NCBI GenBank assembly: GCA_048884965.1
Contig: JBHLQH010000010.1
Coordinates: 1-14,969, forward strand
Direction: 5' to 3'
DNA length: 14,969 nucleotides
Source: Candidatus Thorarchaeota archaeon
Lineage (GTDB): Archaea; Asgardarchaeota; Thorarchaeia; Thorarchaeales; Thorarchaeaceae
Positions 1-14,969 of this stretch are shown piece after piece. A program made the position numbers and the translations under genes. The notes under the pieces were generated by a model. That model saw only the letters and a list, made by a program, of their open reading frames with translations, searched no databases and was not told the origin of the DNA. The stretch's first letter is position 1. Each line of letters opens with the position of its first letter.

Positions 1-17
1 TGTGCATGTACAAAATT

Positions 18-24
18 AGGGTGA
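18..24 (+). promoter_or_regulatory. Shine-Dalgarno-like site (AGGGTGA) for the 32..409 ORF
   Basis: AGGGTGA lies 7 nt upstream of ATG 32 and resembles the archaeal GGAGGTGA consensus. Confidence 0.55.
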
Positions 25-31
25 ACAAACC

Positions 32-409
32 ATGTTGTACCAACTACTACTGTTTGTTCTCTTTGCGTTAAACATGAGTGCTATGTTTAGTGGCTTCATG
101 TTAGCAAGGAGAATGGGCATGTATCTCATGATGCAGGTCATGATGCTTATGCTCGGGATGTTCGTCGGACTTATTGCTCTGATCCTTCCATTCATTGGAT
201 TTGCAGATTTCGTGATCTGGCTACTTGTCCTCGATCTAGTGTTCGTGGCAATTGCATTCCTACTAGAATTTGGAACAGTCGTGCCAATACTCATGAAGAC
301 TATGCAGGGCGGACCAATTCACAGCTCACACATCACCAACCTGATCGTGACCTTGTTCTACTTGCTCGGACTTGTACTGTTTTGGGGAAGTTTGATGGCA
401 ATCGTGTAA
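32..409 (+). CDS. Hypothetical Met-rich integral membrane protein (about 4 TM helices)
   Basis: 125-aa ORF with an SD, four hydrophobic stretches and 15 Met; 15 nt upstream of the DsrE-like gene on the same strand. No family recognised. Confidence 0.8.
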   Translation: MLYQLLLFVLFALNMSAMFSGFMLARRMGMYLMMQVMMLMLGMFVGLIALILPFIGFADFVIWLLVLDLVFVAIAFLLEFGTVVPILMKTMQGGPIHSSHITNLIVTLFYLLGLVLFWGSLMAIV

Positions 410-424
410 GGAGATGAAATAAAA

Positions 425-799
425 ATGGCACAGAATAATCCACAATTATACATTATCGGACAATGGGGACCTGAAGTGGCGGAACGATGCTACGGACCAT
501 TTGTGACTGGAACCACTGCACAAGCTCAGGATATCCGGGCAAATATCTTTCTGATGATGGATGCTGTCTATCTCATCAAGAAAGGAATTCCTGAGAAAAT
601 CAGAGCACCCGGATTCCCACCTCTTCAAGATCTCATCAAGACATTCTTAGATGAAGGTGGTAAAATCCAAGTATGCTCCAATTCTTACGAGTTCCGTGGA
701 ATGAAAGAAGCGGATTTCATGGATCCAAGAATCGAAGTAGCTGGCGCAGCCACGATGATTGATGAAGTCCTAAAGCATGACAAAGTTATGTTCTTCTAA
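425..799 (+). CDS. DsrE/DsrF-like family protein (COG2044-type putative sulfur carrier/peroxiredoxin)
   Basis: 124 aa; GPEVAERCYGPF, IFLMMDAVYLIKKG, GGKIQVCSNSYEFRG (conserved Cys84) and VAGAATMI are characteristic of DsrE-like proteins. SD-like GGAGATGA at 410-417. Confidence 0.88.
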   Translation: MAQNNPQLYIIGQWGPEVAERCYGPFVTGTTAQAQDIRANIFLMMDAVYLIKKGIPEKIRAPGFPPLQDLIKTFLDEGGKIQVCSNSYEFRGMKEADFMDPRIEVAGAATMIDEVLKHDKVMFF

Positions 800-801
800 T
801 G

Positions 802-827
802 GATTGATGGGGCAGAGCCCCACAATC
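802..827. terminator. Stem-loop between convergent dsrE-like and LLM genes (putative terminator or 3' stabiliser)
   Basis: GATTG-a-TGGGGC-aga-GCCCCA-CAATC forms an 11-bp stem with one bulged A, starting 2 nt after the stop at 799 and followed by ctatttattg. Confidence 0.5.
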
Positions 828-850
828 ATCCTATTTATTGCTTGCAATTC

Positions 851-1792
851 CTATAGTTTTGAGAGGACTTTGGATCTAAGCAGTTTCATCTGGTCAATCT
901 CATTCTCATGTGGAAACATGAAGATGGCGTGGTCAAGATCTAGTTCCTGAAATCTCTCAAGCTTCTCTATGATTGCTTCTGGAGTTCCCCATAAAGCAGA
1001 TTCAATTCGTCGTTTGTACTCATCAACTCCAATGCCCCGTTTGGCGGCATTTTCAATTATTGCTGAAATCATCTGTTCCTCATCTTCAAAGCACCTCGTC
1101 CAGAATCCAACTGACCTAAGAATGGAACCGCTTTCTCGACCATGTTTCTGACTGAAGTTGTCAAGCCTTTCGAAGATACGCTGGCATTGCTCTGGAGTGA
1201 AAGACCAAGCGACATTAACACCATCAGCATATTTCGCAGTTAGCTCAAGCATGCGATCTTTTGCCTTCATCGTGCCAATCCATATTCTTGGCGCATCTTG
1301 GAAAGGTTTTGGATATGAAACCAGACTACTGACTGAATAGTGCTCACCTGAGAAAGAGAATCTCTCCTCAGACCAGATTCCGCGTATGATCTGTACTGCT
1401 TCTTCTAGCTGATTGATACGCATATCATCGTTTAGAAACTCGTAGCCATATGCATTATATTCAATCTCTTTCCATCCAGCTCCATAGCCAAATTCGAAAC
1501 GTCCTTCAGAAAGGGTGTCTAATGTTGCGGCCATTTTCGCTGTAAGCGCAGGATTTCTGTAGCTATTGCAGAATACCAGACTTCCAACTCGCACGGTTTT
1601 ATTCTCACGAACGAGTGCAGTCATCAGTAGCCAAGGGTCAAGCAGGATTCTATCTGTGGCATCTTTATCAAGCATGAAATGATCAGAGAACCACATTGTT
1701 GAGAAACCACATGCAACTGCAGTTTCAGAGATTGCAAGGATCGAGTCATAGTTGAAACCAAACTGCGGTTCTATCTGTACACCAAACTCCAT
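851..1792 (-). CDS. LLM-class (luciferase-like) oxidoreductase, probably F420-dependent
   Basis: WFSDHF, LDPW, VGSLVFCNSYRNPALTAKMAATLDTLSEGRFEFGYGAGW, EYNAYG, PKPFQ..PRIWIG, YADGVN, GTPE. ATG 1792 (MEFGVQI) fits the family N-terminus better than GTG 1819. Confidence 0.9.
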   Translation of the reverse strand: MEFGVQIEPQFGFNYDSILAISETAVACGFSTMWFSDHFMLDKDATDRILLDPWLLMTALVRENKTVRVGSLVFCNSYRNPALTAKMAATLDTLSEGRFEFGYGAGWKEIEYNAYGYEFLNDDMRINQLEEAVQIIRGIWSEERFSFSGEHYSVSSLVSYPKPFQDAPRIWIGTMKAKDRMLELTAKYADGVNVAWSFTPEQCQRIFERLDNFSQKHGRESGSILRSVGFWTRCFEDEEQMISAIIENAAKRGIGVDEYKRRIESALWGTPEAIIEKLERFQELDLDHAIFMFPHENEIDQMKLLRSKVLSKL

Positions 1793-1846
1793 TGTTATCA
1801 CGAAAGAGTGGACAACCACATGAATAAGGATTTGGGAAAGAAATCA

Positions 1847-3247
1847 CTAATGAGGGTAACAGGGTCTCATTAGGAGATTCATCAAAGCTACCCTGACGTC
1901 CTCAACATCAGCAAATCCTGCGAGCTCTGTATCGCATATTCTGGTCAGAGGAAGCATTGGAAGATCGTCCTCCTTAATCCGCGAATTTGGATCATCAACA
2001 TTGATTACTTCTGAGAGGGCGTTAGGAATCCCAAGTTCTTCCATTACTCCTGTAAGGATCTCATATGTTGGCTCACAAAATAGGCAATGGTTTGATTTAT
2101 AGAATGATATACAGGAGGTCTTTCCACATTCCAAGATTTTCTGCTCATTCCATGCGGGAAGCATGACAATGAATCTCGCACCTTCTGAGGGATTTCCCTC
2201 AATCTTGTCTTCGACCCAGACTTCTCCGCCCAAGGTTTCAAGAATTCTGTCTGCAAGAGTTAAGCCTAAACCTCTACCAACTACTTGTTTCTCGGGTCTT
2301 CCAGTTCTTTTAAAGATAAACTCCTTGAGGTTATCTGGTACTCCAGGACCATGATCCTCGAAAACAATACGAATTTTCTCTCGAGTCTTCGTATGTGTAG
2401 CAGATACCGATACGCGAACTTCGTCTGAAGGATCATACTGCATAGAGTTGTGGAGTATATTGAAGAATACGGTGGTTAGAAGCTGATGTGCTTCTGCGAT
2501 GAAAATTCCTTCAGCGATATCGGATTGCAGCAATAGCTTCTTGGTGTCAAACTCGTTTGATACAGCATAAATTGCATCAATTAGACATGTGTGTATATCA
2601 GTCCATTCCTTCTGGATTGAGGTTTCACTCAAGGAAAAGATAGTTCGTAAATTAGAGATCATTCTTGAGGCTCTTTTTACTTCCATTAGTGTACTAATCA
2701 GAAGATTCGAGCCTGTATCATTAAGTGGTTGCGATTCGCCAAGAAGGCCTAGTGAAAATATCAGACTCTGATTGACATTGTTCAGATCATGGGTCATAAC
2801 TTCAAGAACAAGAGACGCTCGTTCCCTTTCAGCTGTAGCTCGGGCTTCCGCGTGTTTTCTTCGGTCAATATTTGTAGCTAGAAGTCCAATCGATTTTCCT
2901 CCAGTGTTTCGATTGATAATACTAGCAGTCACACCAACCCAGATAGTATCTCCATCAGAGGTGATCATTTGAACTTCAACATTTTTGAGTTCCTTGCCTT
3001 GCAGGACTTCTGAGATCAGGATTTTACCTGTATCATGCGATACTCCTGCAGAAGGGAATATTGAGGATATGTTACGTTTCAACAAGTCAGATTCAGGGAA
3101 TCCGAGCAGCTCGACGGCTGCATTGTTCACTTGTTGGATGATACCAGACTGACTAAGAGCAAAGTATGCAATAGGAGAAGAATTGAATAGAACCTGATAT
3201 ATGTCATCAGCATATTCCTTCTCTTCTATAGCAGAATCTCTAGTCAA
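1847..3247 (-). CDS. PAS sensor histidine kinase with C-terminal thioredoxin/glutaredoxin-like (CxxC) domain
   Basis: PAS (LFNSSPIAYF..IQQVNNAAVELLG..TNIDRRK), H-box VMTHDLNNVNQ, N-box FFNILHNSMQY, G1 EDHGPG, F-box IFKR, G2 GRGLGL, GARFIVMLP; then about 100 extra aa with FYKSNHCLFC and LPMLP. TTG start with an in-frame stop just upstream. Confidence 0.9.
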   Translation of the reverse strand: MTRDSAIEEKEYADDIYQVLFNSSPIAYFALSQSGIIQQVNNAAVELLGFPESDLLKRNISSIFPSAGVSHDTGKILISEVLQGKELKNVEVQMITSDGDTIWVGVTASIINRNTGGKSIGLLATNIDRRKHAEARATAERERASLVLEVMTHDLNNVNQSLIFSLGLLGESQPLNDTGSNLLISTLMEVKRASRMISNLRTIFSLSETSIQKEWTDIHTCLIDAIYAVSNEFDTKKLLLQSDIAEGIFIAEAHQLLTTVFFNILHNSMQYDPSDEVRVSVSATHTKTREKIRIVFEDHGPGVPDNLKEFIFKRTGRPEKQVVGRGLGLTLADRILETLGGEVWVEDKIEGNPSEGARFIVMLPAWNEQKILECGKTSCISFYKSNHCLFCEPTYEILTGVMEELGIPNALSEVINVDDPNSRIKEDDLPMLPLTRICDTELAGFADVEDVRVALMNLLMRPCYPH

Positions 3248-3421
3248 TTTTTGTCCCTTGCCAGAATAGTGATGTGCTATCTAGTCCCAGTCAGTACCAA
3301 TAACCGATTAAGTTGAGGTACAATCGCATTCGGTCCGAGTACTTCATCGCTTGTTTCTACTGATAATAGTATCTGGGAGGAATCTCTGAGTGCATGGAGG
3401 CATATCTGTCATTGAAGAAGG

Positions 3422-3429
3422 TTTATTAA
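3422..3429 (+). promoter_or_regulatory. Putative archaeal TATA box (TTTATTAA) with purine-rich BRE-like segment upstream
   Basis: gaagaagg-TTTATTAA about 45-50 nt before ATG 3474; SD GGAGTGA at 3461-3467. Confidence 0.6.
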
Positions 3430-3453
3430 TACTTGAATAGTCGTTCAAATGTT
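3428..3453. promoter_or_regulatory. ArsR/SmtB-type operator, imperfect 12-2-12 inverted repeat
   Basis: AATACTTGAA-TAGTCG-TTCAAATGTT has the TGAA-N6-TTCA core of SmtB/CzrA operators and lies immediately upstream of an SmtB-like repressor gene. Confidence 0.75.
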
Positions 3454-3473
3454 CAACTATGGAGTGATACCTC

Positions 3474-3797
3474 ATGTCCGCATCAAGTTTTGATCAGGAT
3501 TCGGTCGTTATATTAGAGGGTGAACTCGACAGTGTAGTGAAGATATTCAAGGCACTTGCAGACAACACTCGAGTGAGAATCATCTCAATTCTTACGACTC
3601 CTAATCGCTATGCTGTATCAGAACTTGCTGATATCCTGGAAATGGACATCAGCAGAGTAAGTCATCAACTTACGAAGCTAGAGGATATGGGATTCATTAA
3701 AGGAACTAGAGACGGAAGGAACATCTATTATGAACTCCAAGACGAATGCATCAGAACCATCCTCAGAAACGCAAAGGATCATGTTGGCGGAAAGTAA
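3474..3797 (+). CDS. ArsR/SmtB family metalloregulatory repressor
   Basis: FKALADNTRVRII, VSELA, SRVSHQLTKL (SmtB/CzrA-like recognition helix), RDGRNIYYEL; SD GGAGTGA; directly upstream of a metal ATPase. Confidence 0.93.
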   Translation: MSASSFDQDSVVILEGELDSVVKIFKALADNTRVRIISILTTPNRYAVSELADILEMDISRVSHQLTKLEDMGFIKGTRDGRNIYYELQDECIRTILRNAKDHVGGK

Positions 3798-5691
3798 AAC
3801 AGTGTGCACACACTGTGAAGCAGAGCGAGCTGCTAGCGAAGCAGTGAGCTTTAGGACCAAGTATATTCTTGCATTTATTTCAGGAGTTTCCTTGGTCTTA
3901 GGAATTATCATGCAATTACTGATATTCCATCCTATTATCATCTATGGCACATTTCTTGTAGCCATCTTTTCAGCTGGAAGATGGATAATCGTTAATGGAA
4001 TTCGTAGCATTCTAAAGGCACATTTAGGGATTAGCTTCTTGATGACTGTTGCAGCCTTTGGCGCTCTCGTTATTGGTGAACCGGCTGAAGGAGCAACTGT
4101 AATGTTCCTATTCTACATCGCTGAGCTTCTAGAAGCAAAAGCAGGCGACAGAGTTAGAATTGAAATTGAAAGCCTGATGAAACTGGAACCTGACTCTGTT
4201 AATATACTCTCGAATGGATCGGAACATAGTGAACATCCGGATCATGTAAAAATAGGACAGACATTCTCAGTTAAACCAGGTGAACGGATAGGTCTTGATG
4301 GATTAGTATCAAAAGGTGTTTCAACCGTTAACCAAGCACCCATTACTGGAGAATCGATTCCTGTTGAGAAGAACATAGGTGATGAGGTCTTTGCCGGTAC
4401 GATCAATGTTGATGGATATTTGGAAGTAGAAGTGCTCAGGCTATCTGAAAACTCCGTTCTATCAAGAATCGTCAAGCTAGTTCAAGAAGCAAGGAAATCT
4501 AAATCATCGACCGAGAAGTTTGTATCACGTTTCTCGCATGTCTACACTCCAATCGTGATAGTAGGTGCGTTACTTTTGGCAATTTTCACATTCCTACTTG
4601 GAGCACCTATCGAATCTGCAGTATATAGGGGCCTTACTCTTCTAGTAATTTCATGCCCATGCGCTTTTGCCATCTCAATCCCGGTTAGCATGGTATCTTC
4701 AATCGTCGGATCAGCAAGAGAAGGAGTACTAGTGAAGGGTTCCAATCATCTGGAATTATTAAGCAAGACGAAGAATGTAGCCTTCGATAAGACTGGGACT
4801 CTAACATATGGCAATCTTACACTACAGGATATTTGCTTGCATAATGGAGCAACTAGAGAAGATGTTTTAGGAGCCGCCATAGCACTAGAGAGCATGTCTG
4901 AGCATCCCATTGCACAGGCTCTAATTCAAGCAGGAGCAGGAGAGGGGATTAGTAAAGCTGCAGCGGATGAATTCATTGCAATCCCCGGCAGAGGAGTGAA
5001 AGGAAAGGTCGGACAGGAAACCTATATTGTTGGTAATAAGAAATTACTAATTGCAGAACGCATCGATCTTCCGACCGAAGAACATGTATGCGGCACTGGT
5101 ACAATGGTCTATGTCGTTCGTGAAACTACTCATCTTGGCACTGTAATTCTTGGAGATTCCATTCGACAAGGGACGATTGAAGCAGTATCTGAACTAAGAC
5201 ACTCAGGAATCAAAACAGTAATGCTAACTGGTGATAGTCATGATATTGCTGAAGAAGTTGCAGCAGAATTAGGAGTAGATTTCTTCTTTGCTGAGCTTCT
5301 TCCAGAGCAGAAAGTGGAGAAAATACGAGAACTCTCTTCACAAGGATCTACTATAATGGTAGGGGATGGAATTAATGACACGCCAGCTCTGGCAGCGGCG
5401 GATGTTGGCGTTGCAATGGGAGTCATTGCTAGTGATGCCGCTATAGAGACTGCAGATATCGCCTTAATGGTTGAAGATCTGAGAAAGATACCGAGATTGA
5501 TCAAGAGATCGAAGAGAACTATGCGCATAGTAAAACAGAATGTAACTCTGTCCATCTCAGCTAAACTTTTCGTGGGAGCTCTTGCCATAACTGGTATCGC
5601 GACTCTTTGGATGGCAATCCTCTTTGGAGATATGGGTCTGACTTTGGCTGTTATCCTTAATGCGTTGAGATTGGCTCGAAAACGAACCTAG
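3781..5691 (+). CDS. cadA: Heavy-metal translocating P1B-type ATPase, Zn/Cd/Pb (P1B-2, CadA/ZntA-like)
   Basis: TGES, SCPCAFAIS, DKTGT, SEHP, MLTGD, GDGINDTPAL, TM Lys (ISAKL) and GDMG...NALRL (P1B-2 signature). ATG 3781 (17-nt overlap with the repressor) is preferred over ATG 3730. Confidence 0.92.
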   Translation: MLAESKTVCTHCEAERAASEAVSFRTKYILAFISGVSLVLGIIMQLLIFHPIIIYGTFLVAIFSAGRWIIVNGIRSILKAHLGISFLMTVAAFGALVIGEPAEGATVMFLFYIAELLEAKAGDRVRIEIESLMKLEPDSVNILSNGSEHSEHPDHVKIGQTFSVKPGERIGLDGLVSKGVSTVNQAPITGESIPVEKNIGDEVFAGTINVDGYLEVEVLRLSENSVLSRIVKLVQEARKSKSSTEKFVSRFSHVYTPIVIVGALLLAIFTFLLGAPIESAVYRGLTLLVISCPCAFAISIPVSMVSSIVGSAREGVLVKGSNHLELLSKTKNVAFDKTGTLTYGNLTLQDICLHNGATREDVLGAAIALESMSEHPIAQALIQAGAGEGISKAAADEFIAIPGRGVKGKVGQETYIVGNKKLLIAERIDLPTEEHVCGTGTMVYVVRETTHLGTVILGDSIRQGTIEAVSELRHSGIKTVMLTGDSHDIAEEVAAELGVDFFFAELLPEQKVEKIRELSSQGSTIMVGDGINDTPALAAADVGVAMGVIASDAAIETADIALMVEDLRKIPRLIKRSKRTMRIVKQNVTLSISAKLFVGALAITGIATLWMAILFGDMGLTLAVILNALRLARKRT

Positions 5692-5700
5692 TTCATACTC

Positions 5701-7287
5701 TCATTTGTAGGACTTCAAAGCATGTACCGATAAAGACAGGAATAAGAGGATGATACATGCTGTAAAGAATGGAAGTATGATCAGTATCTCAATTTGTGTA
5801 GCGAATTCAGATGCAATCCAGATAATGATACCTCCGAGAACCAGATTGATAGCTGGGAATGAGAACGCTAGAGGGACTGGTGGATTCTTGGGATCATTGG
5901 TGTATACAGGAACATAAGCTCCCGCTAGGATTCCTGTAGCAGAGAATACAACTATCAAAGGACCAGCCAAGGAGATTAGGTATATTGCACCCTGTACTCT
6001 GAAGAAATAGAGAATGAATAGATAGAGCGGAAAAGATGTTAAAGATATCTCGATGAGGCTTAGGAGATATTTCGCTAAGACTATGTCTTTGGAACGAAAT
6101 GGACTTGCTCGAAGAAGGTAGATATTCTCTTTTTCATCAACGAAAGCGAGAAGCGATGGCAATGTTCCCATCTGCGTGAGAAGTATCAGAACCAGAAGAA
6201 ATGCAGGAGTCACAGAGGCACTGAATTGAGGGGGAATGGGGATTGGGGACAGCCAGATGGGCTGAGCAATGTTGATTATTAGTCCAAAAGAAACGCCGAA
6301 GATAACATACATGTATTTCCAAAACTGTAGTGGAGTCCTCATTTTGCTCCAAAAATCCTTCAAGATTATCCAGATCATTGGATCATTGAATTTCGAAGCT
6401 GAGAAGTCTACTTGTCCTCGTACTCTACGGCTGAATGTTCCTTCAGTTTCTTCACGACTTTGCTGTGCAGAGAATACTTCGTAAACATCATAGTCTGTTA
6501 TATTAGCTAGCGCCAACATCGATATGATGAATGAAACGAGGAGGATCAGGACCAAAGGACCAACAGTGACTCCTATAGCATGCACATTGAAGGTTTCCAT
6601 GAGGATTACGCTCATGATATTACTCGGGTATCCAAATTGGATGATTGGATTATCAGTTACACCGGGTATGGTTGGGAAGTAAAGAAGAAGTGCCATTGCG
6701 AGAAGTAGAAGATAACGCAAACGGGAGTTTGTCCTGATATCCACCTTCGTCTTTACGATGTTGCAAAATCCACCAACGAAATAGTTGAATTCCAGTAGCA
6801 GAATTACTGACACAACAAGTAAGACTAGAGATAGTGCCACAAAACGTGCTTTCTCTAGCAGAGGGAATGCGATAATAATGCCTAGAAAAATGTATGCTGA
6901 TTTTCTAACAATTCTACGAACGTATCGTGCTAGAAACAGCTGATGTGGCTGCACAGGTCCCGGCATCAGAATATACTCATCTGAAGAATCAAGTACCTCG
7001 GTAGGACCCAAACCAAAATAGCCCCCCACTCCGGAAGCGACAGTAAGGATTCCTATGGTCGCAAAGATTGCTGAACGGTCGATATTCTCCTCAAGAAGGA
7101 TTCCAATAGGTGCAAAGAAAGGTGCAAGGTTGATTAGAGTTGACAGGATAGATGCAACAAAGAAGGCTCCAGCAATTGTGATGGCATAAAACGCTAGTAG
7201 AGAGGGAGTCGTAATGGTCTGAATGAATTGATTATAGATCATCCGTAGCTCCATCCTAATGAGGAAAGGCGTTTTTATGCTAGACAT
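5701..7287 (-). CDS. Putative ABC exporter permease (multi-TM, ABC-2-like)
   Basis: About 12-13 hydrophobic segments, with IILKDF and DEKENIYLLRASPFRSKDIVLAKY motifs; immediately downstream of an ABC ATPase. ATG 7287 follows GGAGTGA; the alternative start is GTG 7296. Confidence 0.82.
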   Translation of the reverse strand: MSSIKTPFLIRMELRMIYNQFIQTITTPSLLAFYAITIAGAFFVASILSTLINLAPFFAPIGILLEENIDRSAIFATIGILTVASGVGGYFGLGPTEVLDSSDEYILMPGPVQPHQLFLARYVRRIVRKSAYIFLGIIIAFPLLEKARFVALSLVLLVVSVILLLEFNYFVGGFCNIVKTKVDIRTNSRLRYLLLLAMALLLYFPTIPGVTDNPIIQFGYPSNIMSVILMETFNVHAIGVTVGPLVLILLVSFIISMLALANITDYDVYEVFSAQQSREETEGTFSRRVRGQVDFSASKFNDPMIWIILKDFWSKMRTPLQFWKYMYVIFGVSFGLIINIAQPIWLSPIPIPPQFSASVTPAFLLVLILLTQMGTLPSLLAFVDEKENIYLLRASPFRSKDIVLAKYLLSLIEISLTSFPLYLFILYFFRVQGAIYLISLAGPLIVVFSATGILAGAYVPVYTNDPKNPPVPLAFSFPAINLVLGGIIIWIASEFATQIEILIILPFFTACIILLFLSLSVHALKSYK

Positions 7288-7292
7288 AGAAT

Positions 7293-8216
7293 TCACTCCT
7301 CAGGAATTCCGCCAGTGAGCATGAGAAAAACTTCTTCCAGGTTCGAAGCCCCAGGATTCGCTTTCTTCAAATCTTGCAACGTTCCTTTGCCTACAATCTT
7401 GCCATGATTCATAATCACAAAACGATCACAAAGTCCTTCCGCAACTTCAAGAATATGTGTGGACACAAGGATTGCAGAGCCTTCTGTCTTGAGTTCGCGA
7501 AGCAATGATTTGAGAGACCATGCTCCTCTAGGATCAAGGCCATAGATAGGTTCATCCAAAGCAAGTATGAAAGGTGGCTCCCTTACGAATATTCCAGCTA
7601 ACAATGTTCTCTGAAGATTTCCTTTTGAAAGAGTGCCAATATACGAATTGAGAAACTCATCAAGTTGAAAACGAGAGATGAATTCTCTCATCCTAAGAAG
7701 CCCATCAATTCTGGGGACATTATATATTCGCGCTATGAATGTAAGGTATTCTATCACACGCAAACTTGGATAGCACGTTGGCCTCTCAGGTATGTAGCCA
7801 ATCCGTTTCTTGGCCTCAAGAGGTTCTCTAAGTATATCGAAACCGTTTACGATAACACTTCCCTGAGTTGGTTTTATTATACCAGTGAGGACTCGAAGCG
7901 TGGTGGTTTTTCCTGCACCATTGGGACCTACGAGCCCGACAATTTCGCCTGCATTTACTTCAAGATCCAGATTGCTAACAGCCACCTTTCTACCGAACTC
8001 CTTTCTCATTCCAGAAATCTTTATCGGGTTTTCAGCAAGGTGGACAGATTTCTTCCCTTTGCCAAGACCATGATGAAATTTCAGTGCCTCATGCAAATCT
8101 GTTTCAATCAACTTCCTGTTGATGTGACGCTGTGTCAAGGGAACTCCTAAAGCTTGAGCTAGTCGAATGAGCTCAGGTCCTGTCATTTGCTGTATTATTT
8201 CGAATGCATCACTCAT
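7293..8216 (-). CDS. ABC transporter ATP-binding protein (CcmA/DrrA-like exporter type) with N-terminal extension
   Basis: Walker A GPNGAGKTT, Q-loop region GYIPE, signature LSKG, Walker B ILALDEP, H-loop STH, C-terminal LEEVFL; SD GGAGGT at 8225-8230. Confidence 0.93.
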   Translation of the reverse strand: MSDAFEIIQQMTGPELIRLAQALGVPLTQRHINRKLIETDLHEALKFHHGLGKGKKSVHLAENPIKISGMRKEFGRKVAVSNLDLEVNAGEIVGLVGPNGAGKTTTLRVLTGIIKPTQGSVIVNGFDILREPLEAKKRIGYIPERPTCYPSLRVIEYLTFIARIYNVPRIDGLLRMREFISRFQLDEFLNSYIGTLSKGNLQRTLLAGIFVREPPFILALDEPIYGLDPRGAWSLKSLLRELKTEGSAILVSTHILEVAEGLCDRFVIMNHGKIVGKGTLQDLKKANPGASNLEEVFLMLTGGIPEE

Positions 8217-8249
8217 TATCGGAAACCTCCTTATGGAGCATATAGAACA

Positions 8250-9434
8250 TTATTCCGTTTTCCCCCTTTGATTTGTATCGTCATTGTCAATCAATGCGGA
8301 CTTCTCCCCAGACATATCCTTTCGTCTACCACGGTGACTGAAAAAGGAACGGATGAGATAGCTTAGTGGAATTTTAATTAGCTGGGATGTTTTATCCTTA
8401 TGTGTCCCATCTTTCTCAAGCTCCTTTACCCTCTCGGCTTTCTGTATAATGAATAAGGAACCTAGCTGAACCAAGGGAATGGGAACAGCCAACACAGATG
8501 AAATCTGAAGAATGACCGAAAAAATGCTTAGAATTGATATGAAAAGTGAGGGTACAAATGACAAGAGTACCACGAATATCATATACTTCTTTGGGATTTT
8601 TTCATAGAAATATAGAGCAACTCCTGCAAGAAAGATGAAATTCCAAATGGATATCATGATCATTAAATCAAGAAATTGAGAGCCTCCAATCAGGAATTTG
8701 AATGCCCAATCCAAGTATGATGAGCCAAGTTGAAAGTCTGTTTCTAGTAAATAGAAAGTTGACTGAATGCTGGTCCTCAATGCAGTATTGTCAAGAACTA
8801 AAGTGGTGATATCAAATACCACTAAAGAGGGAATTGTGAATATTATGAATAGAATCCATCCACCAACTGTACAAGGCATTTTAGATGTAATCCGAGAACG
8901 AAATTGAGACGAGCTGATTCTATTAAACGATGTAGGAATCGCCATTTTTCCATGCAGTATAGGAATAACAACGTGAATGAATAGGATTAACATACACAAA
9001 ATGGGAAGAAAGTCGAAATTGGGTGTTGGTGTGGAGCTAACATCCTCAAGATATTGCGAGAAGAATGCAGTGTTGTCAAGTATTATGGCAACAATGAGAG
9101 TAAGGATGATTGTGATCCCTCCCAGAACCTCAACACTCTCACCTTCAAAGCGAGATGCGTTCCTATATGTGAAATATGCACTTGGGATGATAAGCAGAAT
9201 GAGATTGATGACGCTGATAATTGAAAATGATGCACGAAGAAGATATGGAGCTATATAGGGATTGAAAGAATAGAAGATACTCCTGATGTGAAACTCATCT
9301 GAAAAACGAGTGGCAAATATATCGATGTTATATGGGATCAGTAGGATGAAAGATGTAGTGAGAATAAAGCGAAACCAATGATTCTCTAAAAGTCGCTTTT
9401 TCACCCTGTTGCACCACGTGTGGAACCACAACAA
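8250..9434 (-). CDS. Hypothetical polytopic membrane protein (about 8 TM)
   Basis: 394-aa ORF with many hydrophobic segments and a charged C-terminal tail; fills the gap between sfsA and the ABC ATPase. Start uncertain (TTG 9434 or GTG 9404). Confidence 0.75.
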   Translation of the reverse strand: MLWFHTWCNRVKKRLLENHWFRFILTTSFILLIPYNIDIFATRFSDEFHIRSIFYSFNPYIAPYLLRASFSIISVINLILLIIPSAYFTYRNASRFEGESVEVLGGITIILTLIVAIILDNTAFFSQYLEDVSSTPTPNFDFLPILCMLILFIHVVIPILHGKMAIPTSFNRISSSQFRSRITSKMPCTVGGWILFIIFTIPSLVVFDITTLVLDNTALRTSIQSTFYLLETDFQLGSSYLDWAFKFLIGGSQFLDLMIMISIWNFIFLAGVALYFYEKIPKKYMIFVVLLSFVPSLFISILSIFSVILQISSVLAVPIPLVQLGSLFIIQKAERVKELEKDGTHKDKTSQLIKIPLSYLIRSFFSHRGRRKDMSGEKSALIDNDDTNQRGKTE

Positions 9435-9481
9435 TACACCAAAAAAGGTTGCTGCATAACGCTACGAAAGGTCAAGCGATA

Positions 9482-10189
9482 TCAAGATGGAGAATTCAAA
9501 TCGACAGGTATGTGTCCAATAAGCTCCAAGTTCCAATCGACCACCCTACAAGAAAGAGCATAAATCTCAACACCAGCGATATGGCTTTCTCTCAATGCAT
9601 TTCCGAAATCAGGATCGGTATCATCATTGGGAGAGAATACTTCTGCATCCGGGCGTTGAATAACAAAGATGACAGCGGCTCGTTCAGCTAGATCTTCCTT
9701 TTTGGCTCTTGCTAGTTCTCGTAGATGACGTGCTCCGCGACTTGTAGGTGCATCTGGAAATCGAGCATGACCATTTTCTACGAGCGTACAGGATTTTACC
9801 TCTAGATATGCTACGCTTGTATCACTTTCAATCCTGAAATCTAGCCTTCCGTCAAATAAACAAGGTTCAGGAAAAATCCGATCATAGGCATTGAACTGCT
9901 CAAATACCTTTGAATGAAGCAGTTCTTTCACAAAGCGATTGGGTAGAAAGGAGTCGATTGATATTAGAACACCTTCATGATCCATTCCAATCATGTCATA
10001 GGCGGTCTTTCTCTTTGAATGAGAAGCTTCTCGGATATAGACTTCTTTCCCAGGAATCATAAGCTCATACATACGACCCGGATTTGGAATGAAAACTTCA
10101 GTAGTTTCCCCATATAGCTTGACTCGGCCGAGAAAACGATTTGGTCTATCAATGAGCTCGCATTTGTGGATTTTCAATGATTGTGACAC
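9482..10189 (-). CDS. sfsA: SfsA family DNA/RNA nuclease (sugar fermentation stimulation protein homologue)
   Basis: RPNRF, IPNPGRMYEL, RKTAYD, RLDF, YLEVKSCTL, FPDAPTSRGARHLREL, FSPNDDTDPDF; GTG start preceded by GAGGT. Confidence 0.95.
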   Translation of the reverse strand: MSQSLKIHKCELIDRPNRFLGRVKLYGETTEVFIPNPGRMYELMIPGKEVYIREASHSKRKTAYDMIGMDHEGVLISIDSFLPNRFVKELLHSKVFEQFNAYDRIFPEPCLFDGRLDFRIESDTSVAYLEVKSCTLVENGHARFPDAPTSRGARHLRELARAKKEDLAERAAVIFVIQRPDAEVFSPNDDTDPDFGNALRESHIAGVEIYALSCRVVDWNLELIGHIPVDLNSPS

Positions 10190-10291
10190 GAGAAGACCTC
10201 ATACATCGATTTGGATATCCAAGCTAAGTTAAAAATGCCATATTGCAATTATTATCTTTGGCAAAGGGACTTGAACCGTAGATGATGCTAG

Positions 10292-12841
10292 ATGACAATA
10301 GAGATACTGCTGGTCGATGATGACGAGGATACTCTCAGAATTGCCTCGAGATTTCTGGAGAAAGAAGACCCCACATTTGAAATCACAGCAGCAGTTTCCG
10401 CTGAATTCGCACTAGAACTTCTAGAAAGAACTTCATTCGATGTCATTGTAAGTGACTATGAAATGCCCAATGGATTGAATGGACTTGAGTTTCTAGAACA
10501 AGTACGTCAGGAAAGATCGGAAATTCCTTTCATCATTTTCACTGGAAGGGGACGAGAAGAAGTGGCAATTAAGGCACTCAATCTTGGAGCAGATCTTTAC
10601 CTGACCAAAGGCGGCGACCCGAAAAATCTCTATACAGAATTGGCGCATAACATAAGAAATGTGGTAGCACATGGAAGAGCGCGGAGTGCATTAGTGGAGA
10701 GTGATTCTCGATTCAGAGCAGCTTTTGAAGATGCAGCTATTGGAATGGCTATTGTTTCAATTGATCAACAGATTCTGCAGGTGAATGAAAAGCTCACCGA
10801 GATGCTTGGATTCGATGCAGAACAGCTTGAGGGTCGGAATCTTGAGGAAATCGCTCACCCAGATGAAATAGGTCAGGCACCATTGAAAGCATTGAGGATA
10901 CTTGACGATGATTCTACAATCCTATCTGGAGAGAGAAGATTTCTGCATCAAGATGGAAAGTGGGTCTGGACCCGTACTACGTCATCTCTAATCAGAGATT
11001 CAAAGGGAAAACCGCTTTACTTTGTAAGTCAATTTCAGGACATAACTGAAACTAAACAGGCCATCGAAGCTTTACGTGATAGCGAAGAGCGATTTAGAGG
11101 AGCCTTTGAGGATGCTGCAATTGGGATGGCTTTAGTTTCCTTCGAGGGTGAAAAGATACATTGCAATAGAGCCCTTACTCAAATGCTTGGTTATACTAAC
11201 GAGGAATTTATGATTCGCAGTTTCAATGAAATAACACATCCTGACGATATTGATAAAACACCTAGAATCGTAGACGGAAAGTTCGAGAATGGTAGATCTA
11301 CAATTCAATTAGAAAAGAGGTACATCCACAAAAGCGGACATATTGTTTACACCTTCATCAACTCATCAATAATCTATGACAGGGAGAACAATCCCATACA
11401 CTATGTAACGCAGTTTCAGGATGTGACAGAACAGAAACTCGCATCAGATGCATTAGCAGTATCGGAGGCAAATTATAGAACTTTACTCGAACGGAGTCTC
11501 CAAAATTATGCAGTAATTCAAGATGAAAGATATGTGTATGTGAACGAGGCATTTGCCAGAACTTTGGGAATATCAAGAGCAGAAGCACTCAAACTTGATC
11601 CCAATCAGATTTGGAACCTTGTTCACGTTGATGATATGGAGATGTTAAAGCAAAGAAACAAGGAATTACAGAATGGAGCTGAAGAGGTCCCAAAGCACGA
11701 ATTCCGATATATCCGACCAGATGGTGAAATCAGATGGGTAGAAGGATTGGTACGGAAGTTTGAGTATGATGGCAAACCTGCAACTCAAATTGTCGAGATT
11801 GATATTACAGAACGCAAGGAGTATGACGAAGCCCTGCAAGATAGTCTTGAATTTCTTGATACCCTACTAAACACAATTGTCAATCCAGTTTTCTTCAAAG
11901 ATCGACAAGGTATCTACCGGAGATGCAATCCTGCATTTGCTACCAATATTGCAGGAGTCCCTATCGAAGAGGTGATTGGCAAGAAGACAGAATTCATATT
12001 GAATCGGATACGTAATTTATCCGAGGAGGATCTAGATGAACTAGATAGAACACTCCTTTTATCTCAGGATGACCAATCTTTTGAAATCCAAATTGAAGAC
12101 CCTGAAGGTCTAGCAAGGGATTACCTTGTAAATCGCAGTGTGTACAAAGATAGAGAAGGCAACTCTATTGGAATAGTTGGAATTCTGCAGGATATTACGA
12201 CAATACGAAGATTGCAGATGGATCTATCGCATCAAAAGGAGGAACTTTCGGAATTTGCGCAAGTCATGAGTCATGATTTGTTGGGACTGCTTCATAATGC
12301 CATACTCTACGCAGAGCTACTTGAAGAGGAATTTGATCCAGCTAACTTGTCAAGCATCAAAGACATGATTTCCGCCGCACAAGATATCTTAAGAAGGTCG
12401 CTTCGTCTTGCAGAAGCTGGTTTGGTGATAGGGGAACTTGAGGAAGTTGATTTGAACAAGCTAGTTGATGAGATTGCTGGTCGAGAAGTGATGGAGTATG
12501 CGGAGTTCGAACGGGATAACCTTCCATCGATTAGGTGTGACAGATTGAAGATGACACAGATAATTACCAATCTCCTAAGAAATGCGATAGAGCATGGGGA
12601 TCCAAGTAAAATCTGGATCAAGATATCATCAGAGAAGACACTCCACAACCTCTTCATCATCAATAATGGAAGACCTATACCTGATGAAGTATGCAAGAGT
12701 ATTTTGGAAAAATCCTCATCCACTAAAAAACATGGAGGGCTTGGTCTTATGATTGTGAAGAAGCTCGTTGAAGCTCATGGATGGAAGATAGCATTAGATG
12801 ATGCTCAACACCCCTCATTTAAGATAACGATTCCCCACTAG
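10292..12841 (+). CDS. Hybrid sensor histidine kinase: REC + 4 PAS/PAC + HisKA + HATPase
   Basis: REC: LLVDDD, VSDYEMP, FTGRGREEVAI, YLTKG. Four PAS/PAC units end in QDITE, QDVTE, DITERK and QDITT. H-box MSHDL, N-box NLLRNAIEHG, G2 GGLGL. No TM segments. Confidence 0.93.
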   Translation: MTIEILLVDDDEDTLRIASRFLEKEDPTFEITAAVSAEFALELLERTSFDVIVSDYEMPNGLNGLEFLEQVRQERSEIPFIIFTGRGREEVAIKALNLGADLYLTKGGDPKNLYTELAHNIRNVVAHGRARSALVESDSRFRAAFEDAAIGMAIVSIDQQILQVNEKLTEMLGFDAEQLEGRNLEEIAHPDEIGQAPLKALRILDDDSTILSGERRFLHQDGKWVWTRTTSSLIRDSKGKPLYFVSQFQDITETKQAIEALRDSEERFRGAFEDAAIGMALVSFEGEKIHCNRALTQMLGYTNEEFMIRSFNEITHPDDIDKTPRIVDGKFENGRSTIQLEKRYIHKSGHIVYTFINSSIIYDRENNPIHYVTQFQDVTEQKLASDALAVSEANYRTLLERSLQNYAVIQDERYVYVNEAFARTLGISRAEALKLDPNQIWNLVHVDDMEMLKQRNKELQNGAEEVPKHEFRYIRPDGEIRWVEGLVRKFEYDGKPATQIVEIDITERKEYDEALQDSLEFLDTLLNTIVNPVFFKDRQGIYRRCNPAFATNIAGVPIEEVIGKKTEFILNRIRNLSEEDLDELDRTLLLSQDDQSFEIQIEDPEGLARDYLVNRSVYKDREGNSIGIVGILQDITTIRRLQMDLSHQKEELSEFAQVMSHDLLGLLHNAILYAELLEEEFDPANLSSIKDMISAAQDILRRSLRLAEAGLVIGELEEVDLNKLVDEIAGREVMEYAEFERDNLPSIRCDRLKMTQIITNLLRNAIEHGDPSKIWIKISSEKTLHNLFIINNGRPIPDEVCKSILEKSSSTKKHGGLGLMIVKKLVEAHGWKIALDDAQHPSFKITIPH
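10697..11458 (+). repeat. Tandem duplicated PAS/PAC units (2 x 381 nt) within the hybrid kinase
   Basis: Units at 10697 and 11078 are both 127 aa and align without gaps (RFRxAFEDAAIGMAxVS...HPD...QFQDxTE), about 40% aa identity by manual count. Confidence 0.8.
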
Positions 12842-12911
12842 ATTTCAGGGGATAATCTCTTTTAGGAAACTAGCATGTTGAACTAAGCAACACATTCAGA
12901 GGAAACGTATC

Positions 12912-13148
12912 GTGAGCAAGATTATTGACCAAGAAGAACTCAGTGAATTCATGCATTCACTTTCACATGACATCAAGAATATCCTGCATAATATCCAAGG
13001 GTATGTGAATCTATTAGAGCAAGAAGACGATCCCGAATATCTTGCGGGTGTTGTGAGACTTATTCAGAAAGCAAAGCAAACCTTGGAGGACTATGTATCC
13101 CTGGCAGATAACGGAAATCTCACAAAACGACCCAGTCAGCAGAAGTAA
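12912..13148 (+). CDS. Stand-alone histidine kinase dimerisation/phosphoacceptor (DHp/HisKA) domain protein
   Basis: 78 aa; EELSEFMHSLSHDIKNILHNIQGYVNLLE is an H-box helix. Gapless similarity to the DHp of the upstream kinase; GAGGA upstream of the GTG start. Confidence 0.85.
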   Translation: MSKIIDQEELSEFMHSLSHDIKNILHNIQGYVNLLEQEDDPEYLAGVVRLIQKAKQTLEDYVSLADNGNLTKRPSQQK

Positions 13149-14239
13149 TCAGTGATTGTTGCTTGGGCCACTGATTCCTCTAATCCTGATACTTTGACTC
13201 CTAGAAGGCGAATGTACAGATTCTTATCACGTGATTGACTAAAGATTCCAAGAGCCATCTTTTCTAGAAGTCTACCATCGTCAGTTGATACCGGGATACT
13301 CCTACTTCTCTGAATAGTTGTGTAATTACCATATCGTACCTTAACAGTGACAGTTCGGTACTGAAGACTTTTAGATTGAAGCCTTTCTATGATTCGTGTG
13401 CAGATGCTGCTAATGCATTCGTGGAGGTATCCTACTGCATCAGGTTCAACATCCTCCATAAATGTTCTATCCTTGCTGATAGATTTTCTAATTCGTGGGC
13501 CATTATCAATGAGCGGTCGATCATCAATCCCATTTGCCCTTCTATGTAGCCAGCTAGACCCTCTACCCATGATAGGCCATAGCTCTGTTACTGACATCCC
13601 TTGGATTTGACCGAGATTTTCAATTCCATGTCTTGCGAGATGTTCAGCCGTCTTGGATCCTACACCATTCAATGCTTGAACATTCATCGGTGCTAGAAAA
13701 GAGATAACATCCTCTGGTGCAGGTCCTACCATCGTGATTCCCAGAGGTTTCTTAGTGCCCGTAGCTACTTTCGCTACTGAAATATTGGGGGCGATTCCGA
13801 TTGAACAAGGTAGAGAGGTCTCTTGCTTGATAGCAAGTTGAATCTCTTTCGCCATTTCTATAGGTGACGGATACAATTGCACACCTTCAGTGACCTCAAT
13901 ATACGCCTCATCGATACTAGCACGACGAACCCTATGACCATCAGCGTAGCGTGAGAGCACTTCCATGATTTCTTCGCTTGCTTCTGAGTAGTTGGAAAAC
14001 TCCCCAGACACAAACACAGCATCGGGACACAATCGATAAGCCTTTGATACTGGCATACCCGAACGAATGCCGTACGCACGAGCCTCATACGACGCAGCTC
14101 GAACAACTCCTCTCCCATGCCCTTTCTTCGGATCATGGCCTACACATACAGGTCTTCCAATAAGTTCTGGGTATGTCCTATATTGTTCTACAGAGGCAAA
14201 AAACGCATCCATATCAATATGCATGATCCAACGCTGCAT
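13136..14239 (-). CDS. dinB: DNA polymerase IV (Y-family, DinB/Dpo4/Dbh)
   Basis: HIDMDAFFASVE, GVVRAASYEARAYGIRSGMP, SIDEAY, SIGIAPN..VAKVA, GVGSKT, RKSISKDRTF, IRLLGVKVS and C-terminal QATITDYF. ATG 14239 is preferred over GTG 14251. Confidence 0.96.
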   Translation of the reverse strand: MQRWIMHIDMDAFFASVEQYRTYPELIGRPVCVGHDPKKGHGRGVVRAASYEARAYGIRSGMPVSKAYRLCPDAVFVSGEFSNYSEASEEIMEVLSRYADGHRVRRASIDEAYIEVTEGVQLYPSPIEMAKEIQLAIKQETSLPCSIGIAPNISVAKVATGTKKPLGITMVGPAPEDVISFLAPMNVQALNGVGSKTAEHLARHGIENLGQIQGMSVTELWPIMGRGSSWLHRRANGIDDRPLIDNGPRIRKSISKDRTFMEDVEPDAVGYLHECISSICTRIIERLQSKSLQYRTVTVKVRYGNYTTIQRSRSIPVSTDDGRLLEKMALGIFSQSRDKNLYIRLLGVKVSGLEESVAQATITDYFC

Positions 14240-14351
14240 GGCGGGTACCACAGATAATATCAGCGGTAATTCCTGCTTGGTTCTTTCTCATAACAATAGT
14301 ATCTTTGAATGAACATTGATGATGGGCAGAGATGTCCGAATCTAATACTTT

Positions 14352-14969
14352 CTAGTTGACTTGATATGTCCTAAAAAACGCGTCTAAATCTACATTTCCG
14401 CCGCTTATGATGACACCCATCTTCTTACCTTGAAACTCAGGAGCTATTCTAATGAGAGCACCGAGGGATACAGCTCCACTTGGTTCAACTACGAGCTTCA
14501 TACGCTCCCATAGCAATCTCATCGCATTCAGAATCTCACTTTCACTAATGGTTACGATGCGAGTCACATGTTCTCTAATGATCTTGAAAGTAATCTCACC
14601 CAAGTTGGTTCGAAGCCCATCTGCGATAGTATTAGGATTCACACTTGGATGGATGACACCATCCCGAAGTGAACGATAGGCGTCGTCCGCGTTCTCTGGT
14701 TCTCCAGCAACGACTTGAGTTTCACTAGAAAGTCCCTTCACCGCAATGGATGTTCCACTTAAGAGACCTCCACCACCTACAGGCGCAACTACAGCATCAA
14801 ATGGACCAAATTCATTCATTAGCTCCAAAGCGGCAGTTCCCGCTCCAGCGATGATTCTTTCATCATTATATGGATGAATCAAGGTGTATCCCATCTCATC
14901 GACCAATTTATTGGCAGTCTCAACCCTGCTGGTAACATTGTTCTCGCAGAATACGATGTCGCCCCCATA
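14352..14969 (-). CDS. PLP-dependent threonine/serine dehydratase or serine racemase family enzyme (5'-truncated by window edge)
   Basis: IHPYND, AGAGTAALE, PVGGGGLLSG, TIADGL, VVEPSGA, ISGGNVD. The frame stays open to the window end (YGGDIVFCENNVTSRVETANKLVDEMG). No C-terminal ACT domain. Confidence 0.92.
   Translation of the reverse strand, partial: YGGDIVFCENNVTSRVETANKLVDEMGYTLIHPYNDERIIAGAGTAALELMNEFGPFDAVVAPVGGGGLLSGTSIAVKGLSSETQVVAGEPENADDAYRSLRDGVIHPSVNPNTIADGLRTNLGEITFKIIREHVTRIVTISESEILNAMRLLWERMKLVVEPSGAVSLGALIRIAPEFQGKKMGVIISGGNVDLDAFFRTYQVN

Follow-up and report, generated by a model that had tools for sequence, protein, structure and literature searches.

The window analysed here, a 14,969-nt stretch of a Thorarchaeota (Asgard) metagenome-assembled genome (MAG; assembly GCA_048884965.1, contig JBHLQH010000010.1, positions 1 to 14,969; genome 4.09 Mb, 95.7% complete), contains a 78-codon gene that encodes a dimerisation and histidine phosphotransfer (DHp) hairpin with no kinase domain. 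The gene is real and under purifying selection, and its product is a minimal variant of a kind of signalling protein that has been catalogued but not studied. It lies at 12912..13148 on the + strand (GTG start, TAA stop), 70 nt 3' of the stop codon of a hybrid histidine kinase, as the original prediction had described. The ribosome-binding site and start of its own that were claimed for it were found as well, with a Shine-Dalgarno (SD)-like GAGGA (12899..12903, +), read from the sequence, 8 nt 5' of the GTG. Pfam HisKA (PF00512) matches residues 10-66 at 38.5 bits (cut-off 26.9), and the open reading frame (ORF) was recovered again in a six-frame search of the genome, where it is the only HisKA match in a frame too short for a catalytic and ATP-binding (CA) domain. 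The H-box, S18-H19-D20-I21-K22-N23 (12963..12980, +), fits the H-E/D-x-x-T/N motif and contains the candidate phospho-acceptor His19 (CAT, 12966-12968, +). It is more canonical than that of the neighbouring kinase, as proposed, the kinase's own DHp reaching only 21.8 bits with HisKA. The gapless alignment between the two DHps was reproduced by BLASTP, which gave 26 of 62 identical residues (residues 7-68 versus 649-710, E 6e-13).

AlphaFold2 (AF2), run with the family alignment, predicted a helical hairpin with a mean pLDDT of 89.9, in which DSSP assigned helix alpha-1 to residues 7-37 (12930..13022, +) and helix alpha-2 to residues 41-66 (13032..13109, +). Just six residues precede the first helix, with no N-terminal PAS or GAF sensor and no receiver (REC) domain, and the protein stops 12 residues past the second, where kinases run on into CA. 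The frame around the ORF is only 88 aa from stop to stop. The last 13 nt of the ORF overlap the 3' end of the convergent dinB gene and thus leave no space for a CA remnant, in agreement with the earlier statement that no HATPase remnant lies alongside. A class I sensor histidine kinase carries CA (HATPase_c) in the same polypeptide and the 78-aa ORF does not, so that autokinase activity should be impossible for its product. Nor is the protein an HPt, since Pfam Hpt (PF01627) gave no match to it and the AF2 model has two helices only. The Pfam SPOB_a profile scored 27.0 bits, below its cut-off of 28.1, and a sequence profile search of the PDB returned weak DHp matches only.

We searched a family profile in 400 genomes of the phylum, the compared MAGs being incomplete, and found orthologues in four of the seven species of the window's genus and in 22 of the 28 species of a second genus, and in those two genera only. 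The gene occupies a slot bordered on the left by sfsA (9482..10189, -) and on the right by dinB, which encodes a Y-family DNA polymerase (13136..14251, -; Pfam IMS/IMS_C), and both borders are conserved. Three further species of the window's genus have sfsA (-), a REC-PAS...-kinase (+), a DHp ORF of 74-95 aa (+) and dinB (-), with an SD-like AGGTGAT or AGGAGA at the equivalent position before the start. Their DHp proteins are 59-61% identical to that of the window, and the same genome pairs show 59-63% identity for the kinase DHp, 54-56% for the kinase CA and 56-62% for sfsA; by these matching values, the DHp-only protein has been conserved to the same degree as the DHp and CA of the kinase. 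The second-genus slot gene lies on the same strand and ends against dinB, and nothing is more closely related to the window protein than the 70 residues at the C-terminus of its product. Among 20 further metagenome contigs, 19 hold the gene in the sfsA-dinB slot, either alone or fused to REC (REC-DHp), and the twentieth (L152) has a weak 22-bit DHp match and neither sfsA nor dinB; the metagenomic relatives P0005, P0006 and P0007 were not recovered by the metagenome scan.

The family is well separated from kinases at the sequence level. Its members score 109-125 bits on the family profile, whereas every kinase DHp in the 400 Asgard genomes scores 82 bits or less. None of the approximately 45 family copies has a CA domain, and their frames end 0-4 residues past the DHp profile. 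When 1.84 billion representative proteins were searched exhaustively with phmmer, the top matches were proteins of 79, 73 and 77 aa together with one of 209 aa in which the DHp is C-terminal, full kinases ranking later; word-based protein searches gave only the 78-aa protein itself among proteins of near length and nothing among longer ones. In 18 aligned members the S-H-D of the H-box and an N-I-x-G motif are invariant, and His-Asp is present in every copy read, one metagenome copy having Ala for Ser.

To place the gene among its relatives, we built an IQ-TREE phylogeny of 47 DHp domains (76 columns). All 26 CA-less DHps formed one clade (support 99/99) and the neighbouring kinases of the window's genus formed their own (100/96), which shows the micro-DHp to be an old separate lineage and not a recent copy of its neighbour's DHp. 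The tree rules out a recent tandem duplication of the neighbouring kinase's DHp and modifies the original prediction, which had called the gene a paralogue of that kinase: the relationship is not a recent one, as the DHp belongs to a CA-less clade shared across genera. Across the family, the ratio of nonsynonymous to synonymous substitution rates (dN/dS) was about 0.05-0.25, with a median of 0.15 over 27 usable pairs, far below the value near 1 that would mean a relic. The sole unsaturated pair within the window's genus gave 0.084 and comparisons wholly inside DHp-only lineages gave 0.15-0.25; in pairs that include the window, synonymous sites are saturated and dN is 0.28-0.35. A truncation relic of a full kinase is ruled out by the conservation, by dN/dS and by the absence of CA from every orthologue. 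The orthologous loci do not encode full-length kinases but DHp-only or REC-DHp proteins, never DHp-CA, and the conserved slot, the lack of CA and the purifying selection uphold the claim of a stand-alone DHp gene.

In the second genus, the slot gene encodes a REC-linker-DHp protein of about 200 aa in 15 species and DHp alone in seven. The REC domains of all 15 species keep every phospho-acceptor residue (acidic pair, Asp, Thr and Lys), and AF2 predicted a (beta-alpha)5 REC, a loose linker (128-135) and the hairpin (136-195) with a pLDDT of 86.5. In these proteins (L040:1501-2106 (-) and the other loci L031-L051) Pfam found REC only, their DHp falling short of the E 0.001 threshold for HisKA, and they are therefore liable to be misannotated as plain response regulators. 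Compared with their REC-DHp relatives, the second-genus DHp-only genes have kept the same SD (GGAGTG) and start codon and have the form of clean in-frame REC deletions. The junctions differ by lineage, with M-A joined to KKKPAVEPP, M-L-D-D to KTKAAP and M-E-T-R to KNTYP, and a fourth form uses another start. The DHp tree requires at least three changes between REC-DHp and DHp-only, and the dinB tree sets DHp-only species beside REC-DHp species. Taken together, the junctions and trees show that REC was deleted in frame at least three times and probably a fourth. Fission in place of REC loss was rejected, as no relocated REC orthologue was found (best scores 86-98 bits versus 199 bits for a true orthologue). 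Because the DHp-only lineages are still under selection after the REC deletion, the hairpin is the selected unit and REC an optional accessory. We also considered whether the N-terminal REC of the window's kinase is the old REC of a REC-DHp protein split by insertion of PAS-DHp-CA; reciprocal searches were ambiguous, and the REC tree (123 columns), with a p-AU (approximately unbiased test) of 0.11, spoke neither for nor against it.

The gene is dispensable, yet selected where it is retained. sfsA and dinB directly adjoin each other in a third genus, in an eighth and in one species of the window's own genus, and a full REC-PAS-kinase abuts dinB, with no micro-DHp, in two species of the window's genus and in G050 of another genus. 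On the dinB tree, the nearest relative of the window (G004) lacks the gene and a more distant trio has it, which implies that the genus had the gene ancestrally and has lost it on at least two occasions, with the relationships taken from dinB as the one gene used.

The upstream kinase (10292..12841, +) is an 849-aa REC-4xPAS-HisKA-HATPase protein with its REC at 10304-10639 (+), its DHp at 12236-12421 (+; H-box SHDLLG, without T/N at H+4) and its CA at 12539-12835 (+). The DHp gene is probably co-transcribed with it, to judge from the 70-nt gap and the SD motif. The G1 box of the kinase (12660-12680) reads N-N-G-R-P-I, the Asp that normally touches adenine being replaced by Asn; the corresponding residues are N-N-G in G002 and N-D-G in G003, G006 and G050. 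The slot kinases of G002 and G003 (L055:2731-6168 (-) and L056:2520-5993 (-)) are 1145-1157 aa long compared with 849 aa in the window, and their approximately 300 additional residues 5' of the DHp may, by eye, comprise GAF-like and PAS domains. On the other side of the gene, the 3' ends of the DHp gene and dinB overlap or sit within about 16 nt of each other in every locus examined, and this tight convergence (window 13136-13148 and related loci) points to overlapping transcripts or a shared bidirectional terminator. A dehydratase-like gene (14352-14969) comes straight after dinB in the window. In the second genus (L138:5377-7827 (+), L143, L139, L145 and others), a PAS kinase of 760-817 aa with a different DHp type lies between dinB and a threonine-dehydratase-like gene, one gene distant from the REC-DHp or DHp gene.

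The genome as a whole holds about 27 HATPase_c proteins and 11 REC domains, three of them N-terminal in kinases and about six stand-alone. A profile search found no Hpt domain in the genome; of the 14 reference genomes used as controls, 9 gave a match. Nor did any CA-only protein come to light in this 95.7% complete genome, the shortest HATPase_c frames being 351-391 aa long and most of them carrying a DHp match. Elsewhere in the window, the kinase that the original prediction named 'Trx-kinase' (1847-3247, -) is a 466-aa PAS-HisKA-HATPase protein with a Cys-containing C-terminal extension; no receiver gene adjoins it and it has a different type of H-box, THDLNN. Nothing pointed to the link with the micro-DHp that had been suggested for it, though no test aimed at such a link was made. 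Mini-kinases of 190-240 aa that lack a sensor and are made of DHp and CA only occur in the same archaeal family and in metagenomes (L014:1096-1806 (-) in G020, P0016, P0020, P0055, P0067 and P0073) and represent the complementary minimal form to the CA-less hairpin.

Choosing among several readings of its function, we infer from sequence that the protein acts on receivers: the reading we favour, to which we give about an even chance of being correct, is that of a kinase-less DHp working as a homodimer and trading phosphoryl groups with REC domains, as a shuttle and/or as a phosphatase. The two-helix hairpin would pair into a homodimeric four-helix bundle, whose invariant His19 would be phosphorylated and would swap phosphoryl groups with REC domains in one direction or the other, resembling a minimal histidine phosphotransfer shuttle of the Spo0B/ChpT kind. 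As its partner, the REC at the N-terminus of the kinase encoded 70 nt upstream would be the likeliest, or else one of the genome's six or so stand-alone RECs. In the window's genus, where the H-box has the H-D-x-x-N form, the DHp may also serve as a receiver phosphatase. For EnvZ and NtrB, the DHp domain in isolation is enough to give phosphatase activity, and within H-E/D-x-x-T/N it is the T/N that serves as the phosphatase residue (PMC3510030). This phosphatase competence, together with the invariant His-Asp and the fusion to a phosphorylatable REC, favours a role in phosphoryl chemistry with receivers. The residue at H+4 is Asn (N23) in the window protein, whereas the neighbouring slot kinases of its genus have Gly or Gln there in six of six cases (Gly in the window's kinase), which makes it conceivable that a kinase and a separate phosphatase or shuttle divide the work between them.

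Several points weigh against this reading. Second-genus members have Gly, not T/N, at H+4, so that phosphatase activity is not the family-wide function. The acidic residue after the His is required for ATP-dependent autophosphorylation (PMC3510030), and the invariant Asp therefore suits a kinase donating in trans at least as well as it does a donating REC. Receiver docking in kinases and in ChpT draws in part on the CA or CA-like domain and on the linker (PMC3433190), and a bare hairpin may accordingly bind REC weakly. In the species that lost the fused REC no relocated copy of it turned up, so that no dedicated partner emerges. Three of the seven species in its own genus lack the gene, as do most genera of the family. 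Finally, the Foldseek matches of the hairpin in the PDB, among which the DHp of HK853 in complex with RR468 and ChpT are the top-ranked, lack statistical significance, a helical hairpin holding little fold information.

Two other readings turn on the kinases. The protein could be a kinase modulator whose hairpin heterodimerises with a full-length kinase through the latter's DHp, the upstream kinase being the simplest candidate, to give a hemi-kinase with a single sensor/CA arm and with lowered or redirected activity, be it as a dominant-negative microprotein or as the acceptor subunit in a trans-autophosphorylating dimer. A kinase whose DHp is of the same subfamily ends 70 nt before the gene and probably shares its transcript, the CA of this kinase could phosphorylate the hairpin His within a heterodimer and so account for the invariant His-Asp, and histidine kinases far outnumber RECs in the genome. 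However, the hairpin shares only 42% identity with the neighbouring DHp and belongs to a clade that predates the split of the two genera. In the second genus, moreover, the gene has no co-transcribed kinase and is instead fused to REC, and in the nearest kinase, across dinB, the family profile finds no DHp with a score of at least 20 bits. A His is also unnecessary for an inhibitor, and on balance we consider modulation of a kinase rather unlikely. We regard as more doubtful still a split arrangement in which the CA of a separate kinase would phosphorylate His19 in trans from ATP and the DHp homodimer would then feed a different receiver, giving the kinase a second output channel. Such trans-phosphorylation is said to occur in the reconstitution of EnvZ from its domains A and B, and the three-protein system Rv0600c/Rv0601c/TcrA of M. 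tuberculosis is reportedly comparable. The acidic residue needed only for autophosphorylation is invariant and the gene adjoins a kinase in the window's genus, but the failure to find a CA-only protein in the genome, the competition from each kinase's own DHp for its CA and the missing co-transcribed kinase in the second genus speak against it.

It is very improbable, in our view, that the gene is a decaying or neutral kinase remnant without function, or that it encodes a structural coiled-coil that makes no use of the His. The losses within the genus and the absence from most genera would fit such a remnant, as would the full-length kinase that fills the same slot in G050. Against this, the frame is intact in all of the approximately 45 copies despite saturated synonymous sites (omega 0.05-0.25), the S-H-D and the SD motif are kept, three to four independent in-frame REC deletions spared the start codon, the SD and the DHp, and the DHp and CA of the kinase are conserved to the same degree.

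With respect to known systems, the closest description is that of Galperin et al. (2018), who listed archaeal sensor-domain proteins with a conserved-His HisKA and no HATPase as well as 18 REC-(PAS)n-HisKA regulators, none of them studied, and suggested phospho-acceptor, phosphotransfer or phosphatase roles (PMC5847659). Proteins with HisKA and no HATPase are given the label 'possible incomplete histidine kinase' by P2CS, and in the census it is Archaeoglobi and Methanomicrobia, rather than Asgard archaea, that account for most such architectures (PMC5847659). A paper on Asgard kinases makes no mention of such proteins (PMC10343646). The window protein shares with this class a C-terminal conserved-His HisKA, the lack of HATPase and the archaeal host, but as a bare hairpin without sensor or REC it is the extreme of the class; the REC-DHp orthologues of the second genus correspond to REC-(PAS)n-HisKA with n=0. 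The suggestion that the gene represents an undescribed system thus holds in that the kind has never been studied, though not in that it was new, since it had been catalogued (PMC5847659).

Spo0B of Bacillus subtilis and ChpT of Caulobacter likewise have a kinase-derived hairpin with a His and no autokinase activity, and they shuttle phosphoryl groups between receivers (PMC3433190). Both, however, retain a C-terminal degenerate CA-like alpha/beta domain; the window protein has none and hence falls outside this group, to which it shows no specific sequence relationship. EnvZ domain A and the NtrB DHp have the same H-E/D-x-x-T/N motif as the window protein. Isolated DHps of this type are hairpins of about 65-70 residues that dimerise alone, dephosphorylate their cognate regulator and are open to trans-phosphorylation by a CA supplied separately, but they are engineered fragments of complete kinases, whereas the window gene is natural and kept by selection. 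Partners or small proteins that act on dimerisation domains are familiar from Sda on KinA, from RetS-GacS DHp heteromers and from the plant 'microProtein' concept. The window protein resembles these modulators in being small, helical and homologous to the dimerisation domain of larger proteins; Sda, in contrast, lacks a His and is not homologous to DHp. The REC fusion in the orthologues indicates receivers rather than kinases as partners.

Kinase-less HisKA proteins are usually annotated as kinases or fragments, and the special value of this family lies in its series of REC-DHp and DHp-only forms and in its Asgard context. The family amounts to a clean experiment of nature: that the hairpin alone is selected, with the fused receiver deleted in frame repeatedly, argues that DHp is a self-sufficient signalling unit. 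Being small, soluble and easily expressed, the protein lends itself to testing whether a bare DHp has phosphotransferase or phosphatase activity or modulates a kinase. Asgard archaea have many REC-PAS kinases and few output regulators, and this genome has no HPt; the DHp could explain how phosphoryl groups move between receivers there. It is possible, although we hold this only tentatively, that the HPt-less Thorarchaeota rely on a bare DHp hairpin for histidine phosphotransfer. The hairpin would then be the smallest natural phosphorelay component known and would join the many Asgard REC-PAS-kinases into multi-step relays, and the REC-DHp and DHp-only proteins would be two stages of one evolving module.

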